64,000 bases of DNA from an uncultured Gammaproteobacteria bacterium (lineage in GTDB: Bacteria; Cyanobacteriota; Vampirovibrionia; LMEP-6097; CAYGPN01). The notes beneath the pieces were generated by a model that saw nothing but the letters and a program-made list of their open reading frames with translations, made no database searches and was not told where the DNA came from. The stretch is taken from assembly GCA_964352085.1 (NCBI GenBank), contig CAYGPN010000001.1, positions 95,823 to 159,822 of the forward strand. Direction: 5' to 3'. Both the position numbers and the translations under genes were made by a program. Positions 4,295 through 56,334 of the stretch are shown here, in pieces. Within the stretch, counting starts at the first letter, position 1, and each line of letters begins with the position of its first letter.

Positions 4295-4428
4295 CTTGTT
4301 TCAACTATATTCAGCTTTCGTTAAGCTTTGGTTAAATAGGTAAAAACGACTAAAATCAAGTGAAATTATTATCATCACAAAGCAAATTGCCAGGTGATAT
4401 ATTGAATATCCCTACTCACGGTAGTCGT

Positions 4429-5838
4429 ATGAACAAAACTGACGATTTAACTAAAACACAGAATATTGAAGAGATATGGCAGGACGTTTTAAGCCATCTA
4501 TCAAAAAAGCTTAAAAAGCCTAGCTTTGATACATGGATTAGGCCTACCAAGCTTATATCCATAGATGATAGCTATGCAACGATCGCTGTAAAGAATGAGT
4601 TCGCGCGCAATTTCATCTCTCAGAGTTTCATGGAGCCGCTTCAAAACGCTTTAAAAGAAATACTTGCAGCATCATTGGGTTTAAGACTTGTTGTTGATGA
4701 GTCAATAGAAAATACAGATGAGGGACAAGCTAGTATTGCGTCTATCGCAGAACCTTCTCTAAAAGAAGAAGATAAAGATTTAGAGCAAAACTTTAATATT
4801 CAAATTCTTAACAAAATAAGAAAAGTTGAGACCAATCTAATAGATAAATTCATGTTCGAGAATTTTGTAGTTGGTCAATCAAACGAATTTAGCCACAAAC
4901 TTGCAAAGGCAGTTGCTGATGAGAAATTCATGGAAGCGCCTGTCTTTGTAAGCTCCGATTCAGGTCTAGGAAAGACTCATCTAATGAATGCAATTGGTAA
5001 TGAAGCTAAAATGCATGATAAAAAAGTTCGTTATGTAAATGGCGAGCAATTTGCTAACGAACTTATTGATTCAATTAGAAAAAATAATACTTATGATTTT
5101 CGCAAGAAATATCGTGAGCTAGATCTTCTTTTATTTGATGATCTTCAATTTTTACAAAATAAAAAAAGCTCACAAGAAGAGTTCTTCCACACCTTTAATT
5201 CTATTTCTGACAAGGGCGGGCAGATAGTAGTTAGCGCTGATAGAAGTGCTGATGCTTTAACTCTTGAGCCAAGACTTAAATCTAGGCTAGCTGGTTCCGT
5301 TACAGCAGAGATTGTTAGACCTGATTATGATATGAGACTTCAAGTTCTAGAGCATATCTCTTTAGCTGAAAATCTTGATCTTTCTCCAGATGTTTTAGAT
5401 ATTCTTGCAAAGCGTTTTCCTAATAATATTCGTGAGCTTGAAGGCGCTGTATGTCGTTTGAATGCTTACCAAAGTTTTAGTAACGAGATGATAGATGATG
5501 AGTCTGTAATCAAGCTTTTTGGTAGCTACCGTCATGGTGGACCTTTTCATGGTTTGACTATAGATAAGATCTCAACTGTCGTAGCTAAGTATTTTGGAAT
5601 TAAATTAAGTGATTTAACTGGGACTAGAAGACTTAAAGATTTCACAAAAGCGCGTCACCTTGCCATCTACCTAGCCTATGATCTTTTGAATATTAGTTAT
5701 TCAAGAATAGGTGAATACTTCTCTCACCGCAAACATAGCTCTATTATTCATTCAGTTAGACTAATTAAGACAGAGGTTATGAAAGATAGATCTTTGGGCT
5801 TGATGATCGATGATATTAAGTCTCGCTTCAGTGCATGA
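4429..5838 (+). CDS. dnaA: chromosomal replication initiator DnaA
   Basis: Walker A SDSGLGKTHL, LLFDDLQFL, sensor and box motifs, and the C-terminal HTH RHLAIYLAYDLLNISYSRIGEYFSHRKHSSIIHSV. The ORF is open from 4360. I prefer ATG 4429 (MNKTDD...EEIWQDVL) because of the usual DnaA N-terminus. Confidence 0.9.
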   Translation: MNKTDDLTKTQNIEEIWQDVLSHLSKKLKKPSFDTWIRPTKLISIDDSYATIAVKNEFARNFISQSFMEPLQNALKEILAASLGLRLVVDESIENTDEGQASIASIAEPSLKEEDKDLEQNFNIQILNKIRKVETNLIDKFMFENFVVGQSNEFSHKLAKAVADEKFMEAPVFVSSDSGLGKTHLMNAIGNEAKMHDKKVRYVNGEQFANELIDSIRKNNTYDFRKKYRELDLLLFDDLQFLQNKKSSQEEFFHTFNSISDKGGQIVVSADRSADALTLEPRLKSRLAGSVTAEIVRPDYDMRLQVLEHISLAENLDLSPDVLDILAKRFPNNIRELEGAVCRLNAYQSFSNEMIDDESVIKLFGSYRHGGPFHGLTIDKISTVVAKYFGIKLSDLTGTRRLKDFTKARHLAIYLAYDLLNISYSRIGEYFSHRKHSSIIHSVRLIKTEVMKDRSLGLMIDDIKSRFSA

Positions 5839-7300: not shown

Positions 7301-7394
7301 CGAGCCACCGATAAGCCAAGATCATCCTTCTATACCAGGGTAATTACCCATAAATAATCAATAATCTGCCAATAATGATTACAGTGGTTCATAA

Positions 7395-22876: not shown

Positions 22877-24133
22877 CTACAAACCCAAAAGCAAATTGCT
22901 TTCTATCCATTTGATTTCTTTGTTTTGAACTTTAGCTTTTTTAGCATAAGCTTTGAACTGAGAGAAAACCTCGATGTTATGGTTTATGATTTCTTTTGCA
23001 TTTTTTATATGGAAGTTCTTTGCATAAATCATCAAATCCTCTCTAGTTATATCTTTTGATTTACCGTTTACTAGAAGGTTGTGTTCTTTAAGCCAAAAGT
23101 TCTCTGGGTTATAAGCAAAGTTTAAGTCATAAGCTGGTGCAAGAGACCATTTGGCGTCTTTGTTCATCAGAAATGAAAAGTTTTTACTATGGTCGTCATG
23201 ATTTCTGCCTACTACATTAAAGACCATTCTTCGAAATAATTCTTCTCTCTCTTTGTAAGAAAGTTTTAAAGGGTTTGTAATTCTAAATAAAGTCTCGTAG
23301 GAATGTACTCTTGCTTGATTGTAATCGAGGTGTGCTAGAGCGCAAAGAGTTTGCATGTGTAATTTCTCTCCAGAATCTTCTCTATCAAAACGCTTTGTGA
23401 TAAAGTGGCTTCTGCCATTCTCTTCTAATAAGCGCGATTCGCTTATTTCTATACCACAGTCTTTTGCAAGTAGATAGTAAGCATATTCAATGTTGGTATA
23501 GCCCATGGGCTTGCCTAGATTGTCTTCGCCAACTCCATCAAGCTTGATGATCCAATGCTCAAAATCTTCGTGATTAATTTGCCCAGAGTGAATTTCTCCA
23601 GTCTTAGGGTTCATAGCAATGATAGCTTTGGCTCTAGCGCCACCAGCTGACGAACCGATTTGAATAATATTATTTAAATCATCAGTTGAGCTTTTAAAGT
23701 TAACTCTTTCATTTAATATCTTTTGTGACAGATCTACAAGAGTCTTAATTTCAAGCTTTGAATTTGACTGAGTGTTATTTTGGTTTGGGGAAAATTCTAG
23801 AGCACCCATTGCTCTAGTACCCAAATAGCAAAGTCTATCTAGAGTAGATATTTGAGATAGAGATATTCCTTGACTGCTAAACCATGCATCAATCATTTGA
23901 TTACCATATTTATCCGGGAGCGAGTCTGCAAGCAGTCCTGGTAGTCCATGGTATGTGTCTGGGTTTAAATCAAAACTCCAGCTTTGATTTAAAGTTCTTG
24001 GCATCATAATTGGCGATAAATCATAAAGTAATGGAAACTTATCATCATATTCAAAGCTTAGAGTTTGAGAATTATTGTAAGCTGCATAGCCAACGATCTT
24101 CCCCCACATTTTGATTTCAATTTCACTAATCAT
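22877..24133 (-). CDS. hipA: HipA-family serine/threonine kinase toxin
   Basis: GSSAGGARAKA, RNHDDHSKNFSF and LAPAYDLN motifs. Overlaps hipB by 8 nt. Confidence 0.9.
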   Translation of the reverse strand: MISEIEIKMWGKIVGYAAYNNSQTLSFEYDDKFPLLYDLSPIMMPRTLNQSWSFDLNPDTYHGLPGLLADSLPDKYGNQMIDAWFSSQGISLSQISTLDRLCYLGTRAMGALEFSPNQNNTQSNSKLEIKTLVDLSQKILNERVNFKSSTDDLNNIIQIGSSAGGARAKAIIAMNPKTGEIHSGQINHEDFEHWIIKLDGVGEDNLGKPMGYTNIEYAYYLLAKDCGIEISESRLLEENGRSHFITKRFDREDSGEKLHMQTLCALAHLDYNQARVHSYETLFRITNPLKLSYKEREELFRRMVFNVVGRNHDDHSKNFSFLMNKDAKWSLAPAYDLNFAYNPENFWLKEHNLLVNGKSKDITREDLMIYAKNFHIKNAKEIINHNIEVFSQFKAYAKKAKVQNKEIKWIESNLLLGL

Positions 24134-24443
24134 TAGACTTACTCGCTCTTTGTCTTTCTTTCTTATTTCTGTTTTTATACTTTTCTTTTGGAGAAAAGTC
24201 TTTTGCTTCTAGTAATTTGTTTATTCTTTCGATGTCTCCAAAGAATCTTAGAATACGAATGAAGGTTTCTAGGTTAATGGCTTTGCCACTTTCAAAATTT
24301 TTAATGGTACGCTCACTAACACCTACTTCAAGTGCTAATTTTTCTTGGCTGATATCAGCTTTGAGGCGTCTTTTCTTTAGGCTCGCTCCAAGAACTCTTA
24401 AGATTTCAGCATCTGTTTGCCAAATGGTAATTGCCTGGTCCAC
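24126..24443 (-). CDS. hipB: XRE-family HTH antitoxin (HipB-like)
   Basis: ISQEKLALEVGVSERTIKNFESG is an HTH_XRE motif. GTG start, immediately upstream of and overlapping hipA. Confidence 0.8.
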   Translation of the reverse strand: MDQAITIWQTDAEILRVLGASLKKRRLKADISQEKLALEVGVSERTIKNFESGKAINLETFIRILRFFGDIERINKLLEAKDFSPKEKYKNRNKKERQRASKSND

Positions 24444-24556
24444 GTATATATTATACCCATAAAGGGCAAAATATTAGCTTTAATGGCTTGAAATTGATCT
24501 TAAAGGGTAAGATTTTGCCCCTTAAAAGGCTTGCGGGAAACTAACTATTAAAAACC

Positions 24557-25393: not shown

Positions 25394-26110
25394 ATGGCAA
25401 AAAAGAAGCAACTCACAAAAGAAGAAATCAAAGAGACTTTAAAAATTACTAGCAAGACTAGTAATCGTGGAAGGGACATCGCGCAATTTATGCCGATAGT
25501 TGAAATGATCGCTCGTAAAGAATCTCAGTCTATTTCTAATCACGTTATTAGTTACGATGAGCTGGTTAATACTGGCTTGATTGCTGTTAATAAACTAATC
25601 ATCACAGCGAACTCTACAAAAGACACAGAGTACAACTCCAGTTACATTGCTCAGTCAGTTAAATGGGCAATGAAAGATGAAGTGAGATCTAGGCAGTCTT
25701 GGTTTGGAGTGAAGAAGACTGAGCCAATTGATAAAAAAGCTATTCAGAAAAAAGCTGATGCTAGTGAAACGACAGAAGTTAAGACTCTGGATGATGCTCG
25801 TAAGGCTGTTTTCGAGGTGATAATGTCTGTGGAGGGTTTGCATGAAGATGTGGGTTTTTCGCCTACTGATGAGTCACCTGAGCACCTTGAGCAATTAGAA
25901 CTAGTGGAAATGAAAGAGAACCTTATGAAGTCAGTGCATAAGCTTCCAGATAATTTACGTAGTGTTGTTGAAATGAGATTTTATAAAAATATGAGTGGTA
26001 ATGAAGTGGCTAAGGAGCTAGGTGTTACTCCTTCTAGAATTTCTCATATGATTAATGAGGCTGTTAAGAAGCTTAAAATTTCAATGGTCGCTGCTGGTTA
26101 TAAAGATTAG
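25394..26110 (+). CDS. RNA polymerase sigma factor, group 3 (FliA/SigF-like)
   Basis: Region 2-like segment YDELVNTGLIAVNKLI...YIAQSVKWAMKDEVR and region 4 HTH MSGNEVAKELGVTPSRISHMINEAVKKLK. Confidence 0.75.
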   Translation: MAKKKQLTKEEIKETLKITSKTSNRGRDIAQFMPIVEMIARKESQSISNHVISYDELVNTGLIAVNKLIITANSTKDTEYNSSYIAQSVKWAMKDEVRSRQSWFGVKKTEPIDKKAIQKKADASETTEVKTLDDARKAVFEVIMSVEGLHEDVGFSPTDESPEHLEQLELVEMKENLMKSVHKLPDNLRSVVEMRFYKNMSGNEVAKELGVTPSRISHMINEAVKKLKISMVAAGYKD

Positions 26111-26119
26111 GAGTAAATC

Positions 26120-27499
26120 GTGGTAGGCGGTCAAGGTGATGTCAGCGGCGTAGGAGGTTCTAAGGGACCTAAGATTACTCGCATTGACATTGGCAAACAA
26201 AAGCCCGGACAACAAGCCCAAGAGCAGCCTACAGCTCCTAAAAAGGGCGCTGAAACAGCGAGAGAAAACAAGACACACTTTACTAAGCCCTCTGCTTCTC
26301 AAGACACTCTAGCTGCTAATAAAACTGGAACAGAAACTACAGTAGATAAAAATAAAGCAGATAGTCAAAAGCAAGAAAATTTACAGAAAGATTCTAGGCA
26401 AACAGAAACTGGTCTTAAGAAAGATTATGAAATAAAAAATGTGGGTGTTGAAGCCTTTTTAAAATCGAGAAAAGCAAAAAGAAAAACTAAAGGTGGAAAA
26501 TCCAAAAAGCAAAGAGGCAACCCACCAAAACCAAATTTAAAAACCAGATTATCACCTAAAGGTGCAATTAACCCGAGGCGTCCTTTGCCAGCGATTCCAG
26601 GAAGACTCAAGTCTCTGACTCACATGAACCCTAAAGATCAGCTTCAAGAAGTTGTGAAATTTATGGAAGCTCAGCCAGCTTACCAAGATCCTAATCTTAT
26701 TGCTCAGTATGCAAAACAGCTTTTAGCTAAAGGTGCTGATGCTAATTCAGAGATTAATTCTTTTGGAAAAATGCTTGGGCTAAATGAATCTATAGCTAAT
26801 ATGGATCGTGAAACTATTATAGCGACTATTACAGGCGCGCTTGATAACAGTGATTTAGGTGACGAGCTTAAAGCCATGATTAATGATGTGCTTGGGCTTT
26901 TAGCGCAGCAAGAGATGCATCCACTTAAACCTCTAATTTTACTTTTTATGCCTTTCCCTTTCTCTTTGATGATGCAGGATTTGGATGAAGAGTTTTGGAT
27001 TGATGATGATGAGCTCTTTGAAGATGAAGAAGAGCCTGGTGAAGAAGGTGATGAGGAAGAAGAGTTTGAAGAAGGCTCAGAAGAAGAGCAGGAGCAGGTC
27101 TTTGATAAAGATTTTCATGCTGATGTAGAAGCGAGTATTTCTATTTCTACTTTAAATTACGGTAAAATGCACATTAATATTTCTCATGATGCTGAAGCTG
27201 ATAAGTTTAAAGTTTTACTTAAAGGTGATCCAATGGCTGCTGATCTTAGTTATGTGCTTGAAGCGGCTTTAGAAAATGCTATGGGAGAGAACTCTGAGCT
27301 CTTTCAGAAAGAAATGAAACATTGGCACGACAATGTTTTAAAAGTTACAGAATCTCGTTATTTAAAGATAGATTCTTCGGGGAAGATGAATGAAAAGTTT
27401 ATGCAGGCTTGTAACGTGATTTTAAATACTGTTGTTCAAAATGATCCTGAAAATGATAATGGCGGCGACATAGAGGCTGAATATAAGGTGATAGAGTAG
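26120..27499 (+). CDS. hypothetical protein with basic N-terminal half and poly-acidic tract (459 aa)
   Basis: GTG start 6 nt after AGGAG and 9 nt after the sigma gene stop. Contains a DDDELFEDEEEPGEEGDEEEEFEEGSEEEQEQ tract. Confidence 0.75.
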   Translation: MVGGQGDVSGVGGSKGPKITRIDIGKQKPGQQAQEQPTAPKKGAETARENKTHFTKPSASQDTLAANKTGTETTVDKNKADSQKQENLQKDSRQTETGLKKDYEIKNVGVEAFLKSRKAKRKTKGGKSKKQRGNPPKPNLKTRLSPKGAINPRRPLPAIPGRLKSLTHMNPKDQLQEVVKFMEAQPAYQDPNLIAQYAKQLLAKGADANSEINSFGKMLGLNESIANMDRETIIATITGALDNSDLGDELKAMINDVLGLLAQQEMHPLKPLILLFMPFPFSLMMQDLDEEFWIDDDELFEDEEEPGEEGDEEEEFEEGSEEEQEQVFDKDFHADVEASISISTLNYGKMHINISHDAEADKFKVLLKGDPMAADLSYVLEAALENAMGENSELFQKEMKHWHDNVLKVTESRYLKIDSSGKMNEKFMQACNVILNTVVQNDPENDNGGDIEAEYKVIE

Positions 27500-27503
27500 G
27501 TTA

Positions 27504-28058
27504 ATGACTAGTTTAGATAAGGAAAGTCAAAATCATTTGCGTTCTGTTGGCAGAATAGCTGGCTTTCACGGACTTAAAGGTGAAATTAAAATTTTCCCTT
27601 TGATGAATAATCCTGAGCATTTTAAAACTTTTAAAAAACTTTATCTCCAAGATAATGAAACAAATGAATATATTCTTCATGATATAGATAGCATTCGTAT
27701 TCATAAAACCATGGTGCTAGTTAAGCTTAAGGGCTATGAGGATAGAACCGCTGCTGAAGTTTTAAGTGGACAAGTATTTGTGCCTGGTGATGAGTTAGAA
27801 GATTTAAGTGAAGATGAGTTTTACATTGCTGATTTAATTGGGCTCAAAGTTGTGGATGAAGCGTCTAATCTAATAGGAGAAGTTATAGATTTTTCTGAAG
27901 ATGGACAAGAAAAGATTTTTATAAAAGTCGCTGCTGAACATAATCCTAAAAGAGATATGATAGTTCCTTTTGTTGATGAATTTATAGTATCTATCGAGAT
28001 GGATAAGAGCGAAATAAAAGTAAAAGCTATAGAGGGTTTATTGGAGCTTGCAAAATAA
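27504..28058 (+). CDS. rimM: 16S rRNA processing protein RimM
   Basis: VGRIAGFHGLKGEIKI plus a PRC-barrel-like C-terminus. Typical length. Confidence 0.85.
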   Translation: MTSLDKESQNHLRSVGRIAGFHGLKGEIKIFPLMNNPEHFKTFKKLYLQDNETNEYILHDIDSIRIHKTMVLVKLKGYEDRTAAEVLSGQVFVPGDELEDLSEDEFYIADLIGLKVVDEASNLIGEVIDFSEDGQEKIFIKVAAEHNPKRDMIVPFVDEFIVSIEMDKSEIKVKAIEGLLELAK

Positions 28059-28696
28059 TGACTAAACCTCAGGTGAAAATTTGCGGAATTACAAATCTTA
28101 TTGATGCGAAAAATGCTCTTTCTTTAGGTGCAGATTATATTGGTTTTATTTCAATTAACACTTCACCAAGATTTATTACTATTGATCAGATTCATGAGAT
28201 CGCAAATGATCTAACTGAAGAAGAGAAAGCTAAATGTGTTTTAGTGACAGATGAAAATATAATTGATCAGATAGTCTCTGACTGCTCTTATTTAGGTTTT
28301 AAATATGTCCAACCCTACGGAGATCACCAGCTTAAAGATTTGAGGTCTCTGAGCCTTTTTGAGCTAAATATTCTTAAACCTCTTGGTGTAAAAACTTCTG
28401 AAGATATTAAAGATATCGGATCCTACAGTGACTTTGTGCGTCTATTAATACTCGACACTAAAACATCAGAGAAGCTAGGTGGTACTGGTAAATCTTTTGA
28501 TTGGGATATTTTTAATGAAGCCAAGTCTCTGACCAAGGTGAAACTTGGCTTAGCTGGTGGTTTAAATCCCGATAATATAGCTGAAGCCATAACTAAAACA
28601 AAAGCAGATCTTCTGGATCTAAGTTCAGGACTAGAGTCTAAGCCTGGGATAAAATCATTTGAAAAAATGAAGCAACTCTTTTTAAATATTCATTAG
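28058..28696 (+). CDS. trpF: phosphoribosylanthranilate isomerase
   Basis: VKICGIT start, LDLSSGLE near the C-terminus, and a TAATG overlap with rimM. No other trp genes are in the window. Confidence 0.8.
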   Translation: MTKPQVKICGITNLIDAKNALSLGADYIGFISINTSPRFITIDQIHEIANDLTEEEKAKCVLVTDENIIDQIVSDCSYLGFKYVQPYGDHQLKDLRSLSLFELNILKPLGVKTSEDIKDIGSYSDFVRLLILDTKTSEKLGGTGKSFDWDIFNEAKSLTKVKLGLAGGLNPDNIAEAITKTKADLLDLSSGLESKPGIKSFEKMKQLFLNIH

Positions 28697-28709
28697 TTTG
28701 ACTGTAGCT

Positions 28710-28740
28710 GTCATTGCGAACGAAGTGACGCAATCCATAC
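28710..28740. repeat. hairpin repeat family copy
   Basis: GTCATTGCGAACGAAGTGACGCAATCCATAC, 14 nt after the trpF stop. Confidence 0.75.
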
Positions 28741-28759
28741 TCAAATGTCAGGAATCTAT

Positions 28760-28931
28760 CCGATAAGCTGTTAGTAACTAATGAATAAGCCCGATAAGTG
28801 TTCAGTAAAATCCTAAAATTTAACCGATAAGATATTTATAAATTATCAGAAAAGTCAAATGTATGTATATTATTTCTTTTGAAAAATATAGAGTCTTTTA
28901 TTAAAATGAGTTCTAAAAATACTCCGATAAG
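28760..28931 (+). promoter_or_regulatory. array of 4 direct CCGATAAG boxes upstream of pgi
   Basis: Exact CCGATAAG at 28760, 28791, 28824 and 28924 (spacing 31, 33 and 100 bp), each followed after 3 nt by a WTTGWA-like hexamer. Confidence 0.7.
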
Positions 28932-29083
28932 CAAATAAAGTATAATATATTTAATGAAACAATACTAGGGATAAGGCTTCTATATAAATTACAATTAATA
29001 TAGGTGATTAATGAGTAGAGACTTAATTGGATTTGCTTATCATTTATAATATGAAAGTCATTAATTGCTTTTAAGGGGGCCAA

Positions 29084-30520
29084 ATGCCAGACAATTCAAA
29101 GAGATTATTAGAAGCTTCGCTTAACATTAGCATTCCAAAAAACAAGTCAGTTAGCAAAACTGACCAAATAATGCAATTTTTCGAGAACCCCAAAGGCATT
29201 TACGCAGATCATTTTTGCGAACTATATGAAAAAACTTTAAATTCGCTTATCGGATCCTCTTCCGGAAAAGAGGAATTGGAGTATTACAAATGGCTTGACT
29301 TCAATTATCTTCGTGAAATAAACCAATCTAGCGCTAATTTAGCTAAAGCACTAAAAAACAAGGGCTATGTGAATTTACTTGTTGTAGGCATGGGCGGATC
29401 TGGAATCAACGCCCTGGTACTTAAGAATGCTCTTTATGACAATGCTGAATACAAAGCTGGCAAGCCTTATATCGATGTCCATAATAATATTGACCCTAGT
29501 GCACTTAATCGCAAATTAAGCTTCATAAAAGAGACGGACAAGCTTTCTAAAACTGCCTTCGCTTTCATCTCAAAGTCTGGCAACACAGATGAAGTAACTA
29601 GAAACATCTATCACGTTCTTGATTTCCTTACAGAAAACAACGAATCAAGGAAGCTTGCAATAGAGCAATTTGCTAAGCAAGCCGTATTCATTACTGAGAT
29701 TAATCCTAATAACCAGTTGAATAAACTCAGAAAAGAAATCAAAGAACTATGCGGTATTGAAATAGCTCTCATCGAACATCATCCAGAAATAGGCGGACGC
29801 TATTCAATGTTCTCTCCTGTTGGAATGTTTCCAGCTCAGATGATGGGACTTGATACAAATAGACTGCTTATCGGAGCAGAGTCTTCTTTTGAAGATTTGA
29901 CTAATTCTAAAGAGCTAGAAAATTCACAAGTCGGTAAGCTCGCACTATATGACATTATTTTCCAAAGACAAGGCTACCGGAATAGGTACAGCATGGTTTA
30001 TTCTGATTCACTTGAAGCTTTAAATAAATTTCGAGCTCAACTAAAAGGCGAATCACTTAATAAAAATGGAATAGACTCCACTATGCACCTAGCTGGTATA
30101 GGTACTGTTAACCATCATTCAGACATGGAATTACTTTTTAAAGATGGTAATCAAGTCGTATTGGAGCAAATACTATTTAAAAATCCAATCAAAGACCACC
30201 AAAACACTTATGACGAAATCAAATGCATTGAAGACTATCAAGGTCAGTCAGCTCATATCAGCTTAATTCAGGGGCATATACTGCCAATCTATCAATATCT
30301 AATAGATAATAAGCACCCGGTATTTATTACAGTAATTGATGAGCAAAATGAAGAGTCGCTGGCATATTACTTAATGCAAGACATGCTAGTTACAGTAATG
30401 CAAGCAGGCTTGCAAGACAAACTTGATGATGCGATAAGACAACATGAAGTTGAAAAATACAAAAAATCGATCAAAGAGCAAATCAAGAAAAATAAATCTA
30501 AAAATGCAAAAGAAGACTAA
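29084..30520 (+). CDS. pgi: glucose-6-phosphate isomerase (divergent PGI/SIS family)
   Basis: VVGMGGSGINA, ISKSGNTDE, and the PGI signature-like PEIGGRYSMFSPVG. Confidence 0.8.
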   Translation: MPDNSKRLLEASLNISIPKNKSVSKTDQIMQFFENPKGIYADHFCELYEKTLNSLIGSSSGKEELEYYKWLDFNYLREINQSSANLAKALKNKGYVNLLVVGMGGSGINALVLKNALYDNAEYKAGKPYIDVHNNIDPSALNRKLSFIKETDKLSKTAFAFISKSGNTDEVTRNIYHVLDFLTENNESRKLAIEQFAKQAVFITEINPNNQLNKLRKEIKELCGIEIALIEHHPEIGGRYSMFSPVGMFPAQMMGLDTNRLLIGAESSFEDLTNSKELENSQVGKLALYDIIFQRQGYRNRYSMVYSDSLEALNKFRAQLKGESLNKNGIDSTMHLAGIGTVNHHSDMELLFKDGNQVVLEQILFKNPIKDHQNTYDEIKCIEDYQGQSAHISLIQGHILPIYQYLIDNKHPVFITVIDEQNEESLAYYLMQDMLVTVMQAGLQDKLDDAIRQHEVEKYKKSIKEQIKKNKSKNAKED

Positions 30521-30733
30521 AATTCAAATTTTCATCAAAAATACCGAAATTAGTCAAAATAATACACGCTTTTCGGTCCAGTAATTCAAAAACACTGTCC
30601 TAGCAGGCTTTAAATTCAAAATAATTAAGAGTTATCTTAAGTTTAATTAAAAACAAGACTTACAATAGTCTTATCGGGGCGGCTTCTATAAATCAGATTA
30701 CGACATAAGTACAGGCTGCTTAAAACAGATCTT

Positions 30734-30859
30734 TTAGAGACCTAGCCAATTCTTGTCAGGATTGTCTTTATTGACTTCCCGAGCAACAACTATACAAAAA
30801 ACCATAATTGCTAAAACACTTAAAACCATTAATAAAACTATTAAAAATTCTTCAGTCAC
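30734..30859 (-). CDS. candidate 41-aa single-TM micro-protein (not in ORF track)
   Basis: GTG start 7 nt after AAAGGAG. Translation VTEEFLIVLLMVLSVLAIMVFCIVVAREVNKDNPDKNWLGL. A weak hairpin plus T-run lies downstream near 30651..30676. Confidence 0.4.
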   Translation of the reverse strand: MTEEFLIVLLMVLSVLAIMVFCIVVAREVNKDNPDKNWLGL

Positions 30860-30987
30860 GTAATAACTCCTTTACTATATCTTTTTTGAGCTGCCATAAA
30901 AACATATATGAAACCTAGAAAAGCCAGATACCAAAAAGAGACAATAACATTGATATCAAAAAACTCTTAATTCATGGTCTTTCTTCG

Positions 30988-31238
30988 CTTATCGGGATCA
31001 ACACTTAGGTTTTAAAAGAAGCTATAAATAAATAATAATTCTAGAATCACTTTAAGCTTATCGGACTTTATTGTATCCCGCTAGTAATATTTCAATACTC
31101 TTATCGGACTAACGTTCGCAATACTTACAAAAAACTTATCAGCTTAATCTTGCAATCTTTCAATAGTCTTATCGGGCTTCTTTCTTTTAGCTTCAATATG
31201 CTTATCAGCAATTTAAACTTTCACAAAAGACTTATCGG
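30988..31238 (-). promoter_or_regulatory. array of 7 CCGATAAG/CTGATAAG boxes (minus-strand orientation)
   Basis: Plus-strand CTTATCGG at 30988, 31057, 31100, 31168 and 31231, and CTTATCAG at 31135 and 31201. Spacing of the last six is 43, 35, 33, 33 and 30 bp. One more copy lies at 30670. Confidence 0.7.
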
Positions 31239-31262: not shown

Positions 31263-32039
31263 TTAGAATTTTAAATTTATCCCATTTCCTTCACCAGTGC
31301 TTCTTGTAGAAACTGGCATTTCTTTATAAATTCTATTTGCCAATCTTGAAAAAGGCAAACTCTGTAGCCAAATTTTTCCAGTACCTGATAGTTTTGCTAG
31401 AAACATTCCTTCTCCACCAAGAAACATAGATTTAAGTCCACCAGCAGTTTTTACAGAAAAATCTATCCCTTCAGAATAAGCCACGATACATCCAGTATCA
31501 ATCAAAATAGAACTATCTCTTAGATCCTTTTCTATCACCGTGCCGCCTGCATGCACAAAAACCTTGCCATTACCCTCTATTTTCTCCATAATGAAACCTT
31601 CTCCACCAAAGAAGCCTGCTCCTAATTTCTTATTAAAAGCTAGAGAAAGCCTAGTGCCATGTGCAGCAGTTAAAAAAGATTGCTTTTGGCAGTAGATAGA
31701 ATGGCTAGGAATTTGAGAAAGATCAATAGCAATAATCTTGCCTGGGTAAGGTCCAGCAAAAGCCACCGTCTTCTTTGCCTGAGATTGATTAGTGAAGTGT
31801 GTGATAAAGATAGACTCACCCATTATCATGCGGCTACCCATATTCATAAGCTTAGATATAGCACCATCAGCTTCTCTACTACCATCACCAGCCTTAGCCT
31901 CAAAAGCAATGCCATCATCCATATAGTTCATTGCACCAGCTTCAGCTATCACTGTTTCCTGCGGATCAAGCTCCACCTCTACAAGCTGCATATCATCTCC
32001 AAGGATCTTAAAGTCTATATCATGGGTGTTTCTATTCAT
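31263..32039 (-). CDS. TIGR00266/AIM24 (DUF124) family protein
   Basis: Colinear family-typical blocks: [64 protein letters not shown] and [14 protein letters not shown]. Confidence 0.85.
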
Positions 32040-32276: not shown

Positions 32277-35200
32277 ATGAGTACTCAATTCAACATTTCA
32301 ATAGACAACGCAACAGGCGGACCATTTAGTATAGTGTCGCCAGTATTGAATAGTACAAATTTTTTAGATACACCCACACTTAAACCAAATGATAGAACAA
32401 AACTAGATCAATTCATAAAAAACCCTGATGAGAAAAGTTACGAAGAAATATTTGGAACGAGGATCAAGAAAAACGATAGCAGCTTTAATAGAGATGGTTT
32501 ACTCGAAGATCATAATAAATTTTTAAGCGTACTAGCACAAGAGGACGCAGCAAATGCAGGAACTGCAGGTTATAAAGCTAAAATACCACAGTACTTAGAA
32601 GCTATTAAAAAAGTAGACAACAATGGGAAAATCGAAGTTGCAGATATCGCAAAAAGCACTAAACCAGAAGATCAAAAAGCATACGATACAATCATGCAAC
32701 GCTATGGCTTATCAGACAAAGCCAGTGCACCTATAAACGCTAAACACAAGAAATTAATTGACGTAAAAGAAACTAAGGCTAAGGATCTTGGAAAAGAACT
32801 CAGAAAAGAGTTTGATAAAAATACAAACATAACAACACTCTCTAGAGATAAGAAAAAAACTGAAGATCTAAAGAAAGCAAGACAAGAATTCATAACTGAA
32901 GCATTAGCTAAATTCAGTCCTGAAGATAGAGCAAAAATAGCTGAAGGTTTCTTTGATGGTAATTCCGTTCAAGGAGAAGTAAGTGACCTAGAAGGATTCA
33001 AAAAAGACTTGGGAGCGCAAGGACTTAAGTTTAATGGAACAGACTTTGAAGGTGATGGCTTAAAACAACTTGACGGAGAAGGGAAAGAGTTAACAAAAGC
33101 ACAAATACAAGGTAAACAGTTACTTTCAAAACTGGGCGCACAAACAGATCCAACAAAAGTGAAAGACGCACTAAATAATTTCACACCAGAACAAATTGAA
33201 AGCATGGGTGGAATTGAAGAAGTAAATAAAGTAATTAACCAAAAAGGCTTATATGCTTACACTGATATTTCAAGAAACTCTAAAGGAGAACCCATTAAGG
33301 TTGATCCTAAAACAAAGAAAGAAGAAATAGTCAGCCCAGCAGCAGCAGATAGAGTATATAAAGCAATAAAAGCAGAAACAAATAACAAACCTATCAATTT
33401 CACTAAAGATATTGGTGAAACAATAAGGTCTGGAAGTGACAAAGAAATAGTAGAGATGATTAAGGGCATAAAATCAAACCCTACTATACTAAAAGAAACA
33501 ACCAACCAATTAGAAAGCAGTGACAGAAATGACATAAAAGGCTTAAAAGAGACTATAAGCAAACAAGTAACAGCTCAAAAGCAAGCTGATAGTCAGATCT
33601 CAAAGATTAAAGCTGAGTTGAATATAGTTGAAGCAGATAAAAAGAAGATTGAATTTGCAAGAAACTCTGTGCGTGAAGACCTTAAAGCTGCAGACAATCA
33701 AAGAGAAGCAAAACTAAAAGCAGCAATGGAAACTGCAAAAAAAGATTCTCTTGATAAAAATCCAAAAGCAGTTAAGGATTTAGAAAAAATTATTGAAGCT
33801 GCAGAAGATGGTGAAGCTGTAACAATAAACGGAAAAACATACAGTTTTCATAGCAGCAACAGCGAGGGAAGTATCGTCAATAAAGACTTTGATGAAAGTA
33901 ACCCCAAAGTCAGATTAGCGAAACTAAGAACCAGCATAGAAAGCTACCTCGCTGATAACGCTAGCAAAGTAGATCAAGGAGAGAGAGGCTTTCTTAAAGA
34001 AGATGCATTAAATAAATTTGTAAGTAATAACGCTGACACTATAAACAACAGTGAGCTAGTCAAGCAAGCTGTGCATAGTGAGCTACTTAAGCCAACTGGA
34101 CTCAATCTTAAAAGCTCAAGTATAGGACCCGTAGATTATGCGGAATTAACTGGACATGCAAAAACTTCATATAATCACAAACTTGCTAAACCTTTCAAGA
34201 TAGCAGATGAAAAACTTACACTTTCAAAAATTAAAACAGCTTTTGGTACAGTAACTGATAGTAATACTATCTATAAACACGATGTAAGAACATATGCACC
34301 TCTACAACAAGCTGTTACAAAACATAGTAATGGTGTCAACCATGGTAATTTTGATTCAAAATTTGATTCGCTTACAGCAGATCTAGATAAAGCAATAGCA
34401 AGTGATACAAATTTAAAAAGCTTAACTCTTGACGAGCAAGCAAGCTATAAAGCTAATGCAATAAAACAATTCTTAAGAGAAAGCGAAGCAGGAAACTTAT
34501 ACTTAGCTAAAACTAAAGAAGCCGATTTGACAAGTCAAATAAAAGCTAAAGATACTGTAATAGTTGCCAAAAAAGGAGAGCTTCAAAGAGCTTCAGACAG
34601 ATCAAAAGATTTTGCGACACTAAGAAAAAAGAATGAAGAAAGACTTAACAAAGCAGAAACAAGAGTTCAATTATATGCCGGTAAAACTGATATTGAAAAA
34701 ATCGAAGAAAGATTAAAAAAACAATACACAGCTTACATTGATGAGCAAGCAGGAAGACCTGTTGAGTATGATGATGCAGGAAATATCGTAGAGTACGTGC
34801 CAGGCAAACTATCTAAAGGTCAAATATCTGCAAGACAAAAAGAAATTGATGCAAGAAATGCTAGAGATGATAACCCACATATTTCAGATGAGCAATTAGT
34901 AGAACTGGGTGAAAATCTTTCGTATGCAGTAGTTCGAGATACAAAAGCTGGAGAGCCATTTGAAGTTGCTTATAAAAGAGCATTAGACCAAATTGATGAA
35001 TTAAATCCTGGACAAACAGATGCAGAAATTGGTAAAACTAACAATAGAGGATTATCAAAACGTCAAACAGACATTCTTTTAAACTCAATGATGATAGACC
35101 ATACAGGCGCTTCTGATGACCTAGCTGACTTTGTGAATGATAAACCAGGAACACTTGCCACAATAAATAGAGAAACTGGCGAGCGCTTTGGCTACATAGC

Positions 35201-35558
35201 AGGAAGACAGCACGGCAAAGGCTGGACTTCAAGCGATAGTTTAACTTTAATGGGTAGCGGGAGCACAGTTTTACATTCAGGTAACTCAGTAACTCATGAT
35301 TTATTAGAAGCAGCAAGAGGCGGGAAATTAGAATTATTGCCAGACAAAGTTGATAGTGGAATAAAACAATCAATGGTGGCTTTTGCTAAAGCAGCTGAAG
35401 AGGAAGCAGCAATGGCACAACAAAAATCACAAATCTATGGACAAATGTTCCAAGGAGTAAGTAAAAGTTTACAAGGCATGTCAGGAAGTGTAGAAAGACT
35501 TTATGCTGCTAAAAATGGCTACAACCTTAATGGCGTGAGATACGACAGATATTCATAA
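32277..35558 (+). CDS. large hypothetical protein (1093 aa, K/E-rich, soluble-looking)
   Basis: A 3.3-kb ORF with SD-like AGGGAAG upstream. No recognisable motif. Confidence 0.85.
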   Translation: MSTQFNISIDNATGGPFSIVSPVLNSTNFLDTPTLKPNDRTKLDQFIKNPDEKSYEEIFGTRIKKNDSSFNRDGLLEDHNKFLSVLAQEDAANAGTAGYKAKIPQYLEAIKKVDNNGKIEVADIAKSTKPEDQKAYDTIMQRYGLSDKASAPINAKHKKLIDVKETKAKDLGKELRKEFDKNTNITTLSRDKKKTEDLKKARQEFITEALAKFSPEDRAKIAEGFFDGNSVQGEVSDLEGFKKDLGAQGLKFNGTDFEGDGLKQLDGEGKELTKAQIQGKQLLSKLGAQTDPTKVKDALNNFTPEQIESMGGIEEVNKVINQKGLYAYTDISRNSKGEPIKVDPKTKKEEIVSPAAADRVYKAIKAETNNKPINFTKDIGETIRSGSDKEIVEMIKGIKSNPTILKETTNQLESSDRNDIKGLKETISKQVTAQKQADSQISKIKAELNIVEADKKKIEFARNSVREDLKAADNQREAKLKAAMETAKKDSLDKNPKAVKDLEKIIEAAEDGEAVTINGKTYSFHSSNSEGSIVNKDFDESNPKVRLAKLRTSIESYLADNASKVDQGERGFLKEDALNKFVSNNADTINNSELVKQAVHSELLKPTGLNLKSSSIGPVDYAELTGHAKTSYNHKLAKPFKIADEKLTLSKIKTAFGTVTDSNTIYKHDVRTYAPLQQAVTKHSNGVNHGNFDSKFDSLTADLDKAIASDTNLKSLTLDEQASYKANAIKQFLRESEAGNLYLAKTKEADLTSQIKAKDTVIVAKKGELQRASDRSKDFATLRKKNEERLNKAETRVQLYAGKTDIEKIEERLKKQYTAYIDEQAGRPVEYDDAGNIVEYVPGKLSKGQISARQKEIDARNARDDNPHISDEQLVELGENLSYAVVRDTKAGEPFEVAYKRALDQIDELNPGQTDAEIGKTNNRGLSKRQTDILLNSMMIDHTGASDDLADFVNDKPGTLATINRETGERFGYIAGRQHGKGWTSSDSLTLMGSGSTVLHSGNSVTHDLLEAARGGKLELLPDKVDSGIKQSMVAFAKAAEEEAAMAQQKSQIYGQMFQGVSKSLQGMSGSVERLYAAKNGYNLNGVRYDRYS

Positions 35559-39261: not shown

Positions 39262-39281
39262 AAGTTATTGAGAGCATAGCT

Positions 39282-39513
39282 GTCATTGCGAGGAGCAAAG
39301 CGACGAAGCAATCCATACGTCATTGCCAGAAGCGAAGCGACGAAGCAATCCATACGTCATTGTCAGAAGCAAAGCGACGAAGCAATCCATACGTCATTGC
39401 CAGAAGCAAAGCGAAGCAATCCATACGTCATTGCGAGCAGGAGGGGCTTACACAAACTACCATACGTGAGATAAGTTAGATCCCCGAACGCACCGAAGGT
39501 GCTCGAAGCAATC
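39282..39513. repeat. 4 tandem 34-37-bp hairpin-repeat units plus about 87-bp structured element
   Basis: Units GTCATTG(C/T)(G/C)AG(G/A)AGC(A/G)AAGCGACGAAGCAATCCATAC at 39282, 39319, 39356 and 39393, then 39427..39513. Track ORFs 39225..39479 and 39286..39474 are repeat artefacts. Confidence 0.85.
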
Positions 39514-39803
39514 TAAATATAAATTTGAGCGTATAAGTCATGCCAATTAGGATTTAATTTTTCTATTAAGCTAATTTTTCTTGCTCTAGAACCAGCTTTA
39601 ATTTGCTTCTCTCTTGCTATGGCTGCATCCATAGATTCAGCTAATTCATAATAAACTAATAATTTATAAGCATACTTAGAGCTAAAACCTTTCATGATTT
39701 CATTTTTGTGTTCATAAACTCTTTTTATTAAGTTAGAACTAACTCCAGTATAAAGTGTTCCGTTTCTTTTATTAGCCATAATATAAACAGTTGGGATTTT
39801 CAT
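39513..39803 (-). CDS. GIY-YIG nuclease superfamily protein (small, COG2827-like)
   Basis: VYIMANKRNGTLYTGVSSNLIKRVYEHK (GIY...YTG motif), YYE, and REKQIK(x)W-type conserved Arg/Glu. 96 aa. Confidence 0.8.
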   Translation of the reverse strand: MKIPTVYIMANKRNGTLYTGVSSNLIKRVYEHKNEIMKGFSSKYAYKLLVYYELAESMDAAIAREKQIKAGSRARKISLIEKLNPNWHDLYAQIYI

Positions 39804-39851
39804 AATATTATTCTATTTAAAATAATTATTAATCAGGGATATCACTATCTT

Positions 39852-39917
39852 GGATTGCTTCGCCCTTCGGGCTCGCAATGACATCTACGCTCGCAATGAC
39901 ATCTATGCTCGCAATGA
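39852..39917. repeat. hairpin repeat (GGATTGCTTCGCCCTTCGGGCTCGCAATGAC) followed by 18-bp GCTCGCAATGACATCTAY tandem units
   Basis: Direct reading. The last unit encodes the C-terminal ...ESLRA and the stop of gpmI on the minus strand. Confidence 0.85.
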
Positions 39918-55748: not shown

Positions 55749-55772
55749 AGAATAGGATTAGACTTAAAAAAG

Positions 55773-55803
55773 AGACCTCAGCCAAAAGCTGGGGTCTTTT
55801 TTT
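55773..55803 (+). terminator. Rho-independent terminator after P3
   Basis: AGACCTCAGC / GCTGGGGTCT 10-bp stem (one G-U), loop CAAAA, then a T run. Confidence 0.75.
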
Positions 55804-55881
55804 ATATACCTGTAAAAACCCATAGTCAGAAAACATAAACAACTAAGAGATCTAAATAAGACTAGCGAGCTAAATATGCCC

Positions 55882-55915
55882 AAAAACTAAAAAGACTGTA
55901 GGTCATCTACAGTCT
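55882..55915 (-). terminator. Rho-independent terminator of the 66-aa ORF
   Basis: AGACTGTAG / CTACAGTCT 9-bp stem with a 5-nt loop, followed on the minus strand by TTTTAGTTTTT. Confidence 0.65.
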
Positions 55916-55941
55916 TTTCACCACCAATTGTTTAGTTCTGC

Positions 55942-56142
55942 TTATGAGCAGTTTAAAATCATTATTCTTCCACCTACCAGAACTGATTTGATCTCATGGT
56001 CAACGAAGTTCTCAGTTAAAGCTCTACCTGCAGTCTCTAAATCAGCTGCGGTTTTACGAATAGATGCAGGCAAAGTACGGAAATAGTTAATTCTATTTGC
56101 GATTTGCTGCTTTTCGTTTTTTGTTAGTGTTGGTGATTGCAT
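55942..56142 (-). CDS. small hypothetical protein (66 aa)
   Basis: GGAGAGAAGAAGGAAA purine-rich SD region upstream and its own terminator downstream. Confidence 0.55.
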   Translation of the reverse strand: MQSPTLTKNEKQQIANRINYFRTLPASIRKTAADLETAGRALTENFVDHEIKSVLVGGRIMILNCS

Positions 56143-56334
56143 GGTGTTTTCCTTCTTCTCTCCTATATATAAAGCGAAATTACAGGTATATTTGACAATA
56201 TATATAGCAAAATAGTCTAAAAAACCTAGCTGAAAACACCTAAATGCCTTTATACTAGGGAAAAATTAAGAAATATCGATAAAAATACATATAGATTGCA
56301 GATAATAGGGCAAAAAGGCTATTATTAGTGAGCT

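Follow-up and report, generated by a model that had tools for sequence, protein, structure and literature searches.

The 64-kb stretch of DNA analysed here (contig CAYGPN010000001.1, positions 95,823 to 159,822; called the window, in whose coordinates positions are given) contains a gene for a divergent phosphoglucose-isomerase-family protein (pgi, 29084–30520, plus strand) that is enclosed by two sets of a short box pointing towards each other, and the question raised by this locus is what such a pair of opposed arrays is for. The block very probably marks the replication terminus of this chromosome, as described below, and the reading that we favour, at a rough probability of 0.45, is that the opposed arrays may act as polar barriers to replication forks, judging from comparison of the sequences.

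The window contains 13 exact copies of the 8-mer CCGATAAG (0.83 expected), a number that none of 100 shuffled sequences reached, and 12 of them fall within 28760–31238. Four of these lie on the plus strand upstream of the pgi-like gene (28760, 28791, 28824 and 28924) and eight on the minus strand, two of them inside pgi (29246 and 29867) and the others at 30670, 30988, 31057, 31100, 31168 and 31231; variants of the form CTGATAAG at 31135 and 31201 occupy the gaps of the right array. The left set (28760–28942, plus strand) consists of four boxes resembling CCGATAAG-N3-WTTRWA that point right, and the right array (30978–31238, minus strand) consists of seven, with cores at 30988, 31057, 31100, 31135, 31168, 31201 and 31231, that point left. 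A single "3-prime box" (30660–30677, minus strand, core 30670–30677) points to an imperfect palindrome 33 nt away. Two genes converge on the block, trpF (28058–28696) and a gene of the AIM24 family (31263–32039, minus strand), leaving gaps of 387 and 742 bp. The first-pass annotation of this DNA had all box coordinates right, including that of the sole outside copy at 7308, and had described the non-coding gaps and the convergent genes as they are; its estimate of about one exact copy per window agrees with the computed value. The lone outside box (7308–7315), 87 nt upstream of a comEC-ROK (glucokinase-like) gene pair and in the same orientation, is without the extension of the other boxes and is compatible with chance (0.8 expected). 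In the literature, the 8-mer was matched by primers only. Among the matches listed when a genome collection was scanned for triple boxes, unrelated tandem repeats in coding sequence filled the list.

Alignment of 44 non-coding boxes from six lineages showed that the 8-bp core is invariant and is immediately preceded by a pyrimidine, and that most copies extend to a full unit CCGATAAG-N3-ATTGWAA. This downstream extension, already noticed in the first reading, is real and weaker than the core: the second element, aTTGwAA at +11 to +17, carries about 0.4–0.6 bits per position at +12 to +17. Its distance to the preceding core is constant and that to the next core variable, so that the second element is tied to the core before it and the unit is a single asymmetric site of about 19 bp. 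Upstream of the core, from −40 to −9, zero conservation or information was found in 43 aligned boxes. Close box spacings in eight lineages range from 30 to 46 bp (median 37) and agree only weakly with the helical repeat (Rayleigh p ~0.03); the phasing of about 33 bp that had been proposed for the arrays holds for the right array of the window, but not for the eight lineages. The spacing is never below 30 bp, which fits bound proteins that exclude one another.

The eight lineages are the window, L006/L134, L007/L135, L008, L132, L133, L186 and L191, of which six bear pgi. The exact pgi protein of the window was found on short metagenome contigs only, and its closest homologues (48–66% identity) are located on L006/L134, L007/L135, L008, L132 and L133. 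All of these contigs have plus boxes upstream of pgi and minus boxes downstream, even where the flanking genes differ. L186 and L191 were retrieved by scanning JGI metagenomes for the box pair with its extension; their neighbours hyp437-rimM-trpF are common with the window (where the first gene is hyp459) at 26–51% identity, and they have seven boxes with an N3-WTTGTAA extension, the palindrome, and no pgi. The gene enclosed there is an unrelated 330-aa open reading frame (ORF) on the opposite strand relative to trpF. A change of the enclosed gene thus leaves the arrays in place, which excludes that they are dedicated to regulating pgi; pgi is a passenger and not a defining part of the block. 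The arrays have been kept in eight lineages although the intergenic DNA is otherwise unalignable and the proteins shared between array-bearing lineages are only 26–66% identical. Two further contigs with pgi homologues (L009 and L011, ~52% identity) have neither boxes nor the long spacer. The two inverted sets of a conserved, selected motif of the protein-binding type, as first described, are therefore supported over eight lineages, and their conservation at orthologous pgi loci extends to all six pgi-bearing lineages, with L009 and L011 as the loci where they are absent. Among the homologues, those labelled as "Cyanobacteria/Cyanobacteriota bacterium" metagenome-assembled genomes (MAGs) include a pgi homologue 50% identical, and a DnaA homologue 42% identical, to those of the window.

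The orientation of the boxes follows one simple rule. The 69 boxes of the eight loci show exactly one plus-to-minus switch per locus, with which the pgi-internal copies also comply; plus boxes number one to five per lineage and are present in all eight. The switch is always on the trpF side of the palindrome, 0.4–1.7 kb away from it.

The two boxes inside pgi show that this constraint reaches into coding sequence. They are antisense to pgi and in frame as Leu-Ile-Gly, at residues 55–57 for site 1 (29236–29253, minus strand, core 29246–29253) and at residues 262–264 for site 2 (29857–29874, minus strand, core 29867–29874). The same two in-frame positions are found in the pgi genes of the related contigs (one position in L133): CTT ATC GG stands at the same codon of site 1 in five orthologues, and site 2 is present in all six pgi-bearing lineages. 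All 11 Leu-Ile-Gly sites in the six orthologues are encoded by CTT ATC, where the background share of CTT in these genes is 0.23–0.36 of Leu codons and that of ATC is 0.19–0.36 of Ile codons. Such uniform use of codons with a minority share means that the DNA motif is under selection inside the coding sequence. The array-less relatives are without Leu-Ile-Gly at site 1, and have L-x-G with a variable x at site 2.

The position of the block on the chromosome was assessed from third-codon-position skews, G-C (GC3) and A-T (AT3), read on the plus strand whatever the strand of the gene. Left of the block, the GC3 skew is positive in 19 of 22 genes and the AT3 skew negative in 19 of 22; from pgi rightwards, the GC3 skew is negative in 21 of 24 genes and the AT3 skew positive in 21 of 24 (Mann-Whitney p=3e-7 for the left-right difference). 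The flip is seen for genes on both strands, the left side being rich in G and T and the right side in C and A. An unbiased change-point search placed the G-C and keto maxima at 29,086–29,125 and the T-A maximum at ~30,150, so that the cumulative third-position skew peaks define a switch zone of 28500–30400. In the four relatives whose contigs reach past the block on either side, L134 (maximum 7441), L135 (3866), L008 and L186 (10197), the skews flip there as well, and in the same sense with respect to the boxes. L009 and L011, which have no arrays, show no flip at their pgi genes, and there is none at dnaA of the window (4360–5838), ~25 kb from the block. G,T-rich strands are the leading strands in essentially all bacteria (PMC3317982), and here these strands run into the block; the forks therefore converge on it, as expected for a terminus and not for an origin. 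We thus regard the block as very probably the replication terminus of this chromosome. The synteny and GC-skew checks, which had been called for by the first-pass annotation, were in this way decisive. Some G/T-rich oligomers occur exclusively on the strands running towards the block, namely TGTCTG (24:0), TTTATTG (24:0) and TTCTTGAT (15:0), and are candidates for genome-wide polar motifs of this lineage, of the type of the FtsK-orienting polar sequences (KOPS) or the architecture-imparting sequences (AIMS).

Within the switch zone region also lies the second conserved element of the locus. A search for 11-mers common to the non-coding parts of the loci gave, besides the boxes, a single element, AGATAATTTAGAGTTAT, located 44–159 nt after the pgi stop codon and identical at 17 of 17 positions in five lineages. 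It belongs to a 25-bp imperfect palindrome, TCAAGATAATTTAGAGTTATCTTGA, which is present in eight lineages and unique in the window, where it reads TCAAAATAATTAAGAGTTATCTTAA (30616–30640; clade consensus YTCAAGATAATTTAGAGTTATYTTGA). Inverted arms TCAAGATAA surround a 7-bp centre (TTTAGAG in the window), and a conserved AAATCAGGCTTT precedes the palindrome. Its positions in the relatives are 9345–9369 in L134, 2844–2868 in L135, 2392–2416 in L008, 3009–3033 in L132, 1978–2002 in L133 and 8634–8661 in L186. A single box, pointing at the palindrome, stands 33 nt from it in the window and 33–47 nt from it in five other lineages. Its inner part, ATAA-N7-TTAT, is similar to E. coli dif, GGTGCGCATAATGTATATTATGTTAAAT (PMC3325230), and its right arm agrees with E. 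coli TTATGTTAAAT at nine of 11 bases (PMC3325230); the centre is 7 bp instead of 6. The palindrome has the layout of a dif/Xer core site, that is, a single copy of ~28 bp with inverted arms of ~11 bp and a centre of 6–8 bp at the skew switch. A scan of the window with the canonical dif pattern gave no convincing match, the 64-kb window contains no recombinase gene, and the exact extended palindrome had no match in JGI metagenomes. The 43 viral matches to the 17-mer, which are without the flanking TTGA, were set aside as chance. Since the palindrome is single-copy, of the 28-bp class, exceptionally conserved and at the skew switch, it probably serves this clade as its dif/Xer site, as far as can be judged from its sequence. 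The 7-bp centre and the nearly symmetrical arms suggest a single-recombinase system.

What, then, could read the boxes? A polar site that flips once where the forks meet must have as its reader something travelling on the DNA towards or away from the terminus. Of the candidates, a Ter-type barrier fits best, because of the asymmetric footprint of ~19 bp, the mutual exclusion, the sites inside ORFs, the redundancy, the single switch and the local distribution, and asymmetric sites in two opposed groups, as expected of a fork trap, were found in all eight loci. We infer that a protein binds these sites, that it acts in one direction and that the replisome is its target. Each site of ~19 bp would be bound by an asymmetric, probably monomeric, sequence-specific protein, and the bound arrays would be one-way barriers, such that a fork passes the first set that it meets and halts at the second. 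Forks from the left would pass the plus set and stall at the minus set, and forks from the right would pass the minus set and dif and stall at the plus set; fork fusion would then be confined to ~300 bp (28931–29246), beside dif.

The known fork traps are Tus-Ter and RTP-Ter only, both of narrow distribution and convergent origin (PMC10331603). The present arrays resemble Tus-Ter in having asymmetric sites of ~20 bp, two opposed groups at the terminus, redundant copies, some of them within ORFs, and a dif site within the trap area (PMC10331603, PMC8347550); some outer ter sites in E. coli likewise lie inside ORFs (PMC8347550). They differ in that four to eight sites are packed into 200–300 bp, with a trap of ~0.3–2.5 kb, the 10 sites of E. 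coli being scattered across hundreds of kb, in that the opposite half of the site is the strongly conserved one, and in that the dif-like site is not between the innermost opposed sites. As a lead only, the sequence which we take to be that of TerB, AATAAGTATGTTGTAACTAAAGT, has AG-N4-TTGTAA in common with the box and its extension, at identical spacing, but under this alignment the polarity is inverted. The likeness to RTP-Ter of Bacillus subtilis lies in the compact inner trap, with the opposed TerI and TerII tens of bp apart and several protein molecules per barrier (PMC10331603). RTP-Ter arose by convergent evolution, and fork traps can arise independently (PMC10331603). In contrast to the sites described here, each RTP site is a pair of half-sites to which dimers bind; no RTP family match was obtained for the ORFs scanned in the window, and no gene for a terminator protein that carries a site in its promoter can be identified. 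A one-way barrier made of multi-copy polar sites is also familiar from the fork barriers of eukaryotic ribosomal DNA (rDNA), such as the Sal-box/TTF-I, Reb1 and Fob1 Ter arrays, which, however, belong to another domain of life, to the rDNA instead of the chromosome terminus, and to Myb-type or Fob1 proteins. With somewhat more reserve than for the barrier function itself, we therefore consider that the locus may represent a third, independently evolved bacterial fork trap, in which dense opposed arrays of 19-bp sites span ~2.5 kb around a dif site, with some sites placed in coding sequence at the price of fixed Leu-Ile-Gly codons, and are bound by a protein unrelated to Tus or RTP, in an uncultivated lineage labelled Cyanobacteriota in MAG records.

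Several points weigh against such a trap. The skew gives the average meeting point of the forks and says nothing on blocking. The scanned ORFs of the window gave no match to the Tus (PF05472) or RTP families, and an all-against-all comparison of the flanking ORFs gave no gene family common to the eight loci and nominated no binder. The dif-like site lies outside the innermost opposed boxes, 0.4–1.7 kb aside and within the minus set, and dense arrays of four to eight sites are without precedent in bacterial Ter systems. If the alignment with TerB is taken at face value, the polarity of Tus-Ter would exclude forks from the region and not trap them. Finally, the core coincides with the −10 consensus of sigma-28 promoters, and a gene for a FliA/WhiG-like sigma factor lies 3 kb away.

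The alternative that survives best, although we consider it unlikely, is that the boxes are signals for FtsK and Xer, either as a concentrated KOPS equivalent that orients FtsK to dif or as Xer accessory sites. The core is invariant over 8 bp, as is that of KOPS, GGGNAGGG (PMC3325230), the boxes occupy the leading strand to the left and right alike and are directed at the terminus region, and the single box 33–47 nt from the palindrome is aimed at it in six lineages. KOPS and the SpoIIIE recognition sequences (SRS), together with FtsK-XerCD-dif, offer an overall likeness as well, namely an 8-bp polar leading-strand motif that converges on the terminus and a palindrome of the 28-bp class at the skew switch (PMC3325230). 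In the 61 kb beyond the block, C[CT]GATAAG occurs six times pointing towards it and never pointing away, against analytic expectations of ~2.5 and 1.8. These six outlying copies, however, are without the extension, the exact core shows no excess there (one copy in 61 kb), and other octamers, for example TTCTTGAT, are far more skewed. The orientation switch is displaced from the palindrome by 0.4–1.7 kb, such that one or two conserved boxes point away from it in all eight lineages, and the motif is concentrated in local arrays. The 7-bp extension, an additional conserved half-site, and the minimum spacing of 30 bp imply a footprint larger than that of an 8-bp KOPS. The palindrome itself also differs from an XerCD-dif site, with a centre of 7 instead of 6 bp and nearly symmetrical arms.

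Rather less probable is a role of the boxes in transcription, as −10 elements of the FliA/WhiG type or as operators, with convergent transcription of pgi and a micro-ORF operon; in a variant, the head-on transcription complexes would themselves form the polar fork barrier. CCGATAA is identical to seven of the eight bases of the sigma-28 −10 consensus, GCCGATAA, the sequence in the E. coli fliL promoter is GCCGATAAG (PMC4183435), and E. coli has many intragenic and antisense FliA sites (PMC4183435). The sigma factor gene near the block (25394–26110) is syntenic in L006. In the window and five relatives, the intergenic arrays also lie upstream of a co-oriented gene, with the proximal box 90–170 nt from the start codon. 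This arrangement, which the first-pass annotation had taken as evidence for operator arrays serving pgi and the micro-ORFs, breaks down in L186 and L191, which lack pgi and in which no co-oriented gene follows the arrays, and the pgi-internal copies are antisense, so that the operator proposal does not survive in that form. The base before CCGATAA is Y and not the G of the sigma-28 −10 element; the −35 element (TAAA ~15 bp upstream) is absent, with no TAAA peak in 43 boxes, and the second element is instead downstream of the core. Units arrayed 30–46 bp apart are too close for simultaneous occupation by RNA polymerase. In L186 the boxes are independent of the orientation of the neighbouring genes, and the sigma gene is unlinked to the block in L186, L135 and L008. 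Only in the barrier variant would this reading account for the position of the block at the skew switch. Scans of the block for promoters of the sigma-70 type and for terminators were at chance level.

It is very improbable that the boxes are Chi-like polar signals for a nuclease of the RecBCD/AddAB type, which would halt degradation from fork-fusion ends on both sides. The 8-nt polar core is on the leading strand, the single switch puts every copy in the active orientation for enzymes leaving the switch point, and arrays would offset a partial recognition per copy. Chi is abundant genome-wide, however, whereas here the other 61 kb hold one exact copy, and recognition of a single-stranded octamer leaves the extension and the minimum spacing of 30 bp unexplained.

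Still less can be said for a replication origin, with the boxes as non-canonical DnaA boxes or as iterons of a bipartite oriC. The reverse complement of the box, CTTATCGG, has TTATC in common with TTATCCACA, and DnaA of the window carries P423S, D433K and T435S at base-contact positions (PMC7561715, PMC5043019); canonical DnaA boxes are not enriched, dnaA is 24 kb off and the flanks are AT-rich. The box, however, matches only five of the nine bases of TTATCCACA, there is no box upstream of dnaA, and the flanking genes converge on the block. The RKHSS signature of DnaA is common to relatives down to 39% identity (RKHTS at 36%); as every relative examined has it, with or without arrays, it does not vary with them, and the DnaA box of the whole group is probably non-canonical. 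The reversed skew polarity in five lineages and the dif-like site in the block exclude an origin; the first proposal of origin iterons was right in tying the locus to replication and wrong as to which end of it. As a separate observation, dnaA (4360–5838), ~25 kb from the terminus, has no canonical DnaA-box cluster nearby.

The remaining suggestion, a non-autonomous Tn7/Mu-type transposon with pgi as its cargo and the arrays as its multi-site ends, has in its favour two inverted sets of ~20-bp sites, unequal in number, which resemble Tn7 and Mu ends, and it is effectively refuted, since the single-copy block keeps the same position and flanks (hyp459-rimM-trpF) in lineages at 26–51% protein identity, and remains the same landmark over the full 26–66% range, has boxes inside a "cargo" that varies by lineage, lacks a transposase and a terminal inverted repeat extending past the box, and coincides with the skew switch.

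It is an open question if a termination barrier exists at all in the majority of bacteria (PMC10331603). If the opposed arrays are indeed a third fork trap, fork trapping beside dif would be a recurrent solution, and ~250 bp per side would provide a small portable module for studying polar barriers. If instead the boxes are read by FtsK and Xer, the locus would define the polar motif and the dif site for a phylum in which neither has been known. The locus is a precise sequence marker of the terminus and dif for this clade, which should aid the finishing of MAGs and peak-to-trough estimates of growth rate, and the boxes inside pgi are a clear case of a DNA-level signal that constrains a protein sequence.

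Apart from the boxes and the conserved palindrome, the 742-bp gap holds two micro-ORFs, A and B, which are small membrane peptides conserved beside the palindrome. Micro-ORF B (30734–30859, minus strand) encodes 41 aa with one predicted membrane helix and a conserved C-terminal NKDxPDKNWLG. Micro-ORF A (MVPE+RKNAS...SHTVLWE) is a remnant in the window (30860–31000, minus strand), with stops and a frameshift, and is interrupted in L008 also; it is intact in L006 and L007. Informative family matches were obtained neither for these micro-ORFs nor for the neighbouring proteins of 459 and 1093 aa, and Rfam and tRNA scans of the window were empty.

Left of the block, 25394–27499 encodes the FliA/WhiG-family sigma factor (best PDB matches 7LQ4 and 1RP3), followed by the conserved 459-aa protein without a known domain, whose gene adjoins rimM-trpF in five lineages; no flagellar genes are present in the window. 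A hipBA toxin-antitoxin pair (22877–24450) is also close to the terminus. A dispersed hairpin repeat resembling repetitive extragenic palindromic (REP) elements (GTCATTGCGA...GCAATCCATAC) has seven matches to its 11-mer, against 0.8 expected, at 28705–28740, 36820, 39270–39430, 39848–39910 and 63624, and one copy abuts the first box; the repeat includes four tandem units of ~37 bp, and inverted copies flank a small minus-strand ORF that resembles a GIY-YIG nuclease. Two other long non-coding stretches, 39262–39902 and 55749–56334, were considered and set aside, as they hold REP-like repeats and small ORFs and nothing resembling an origin or a terminus.

Directly to the right of the block stands a large domainless protein, of 1093 aa in the window (32277–35558) and 1463 aa in L135 (5444–9835), which shows a faint match to the C-terminal domain of the DNA polymerase III beta subunit (E=0.03); several further ORFs of 860–1180 aa in the window are without a family match. 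The terminus-proximal region in the window also encodes a Y1 transposase of the IS200/IS605 type (565–1434), and in L135 a Y1 transposase is found to the right of the block.

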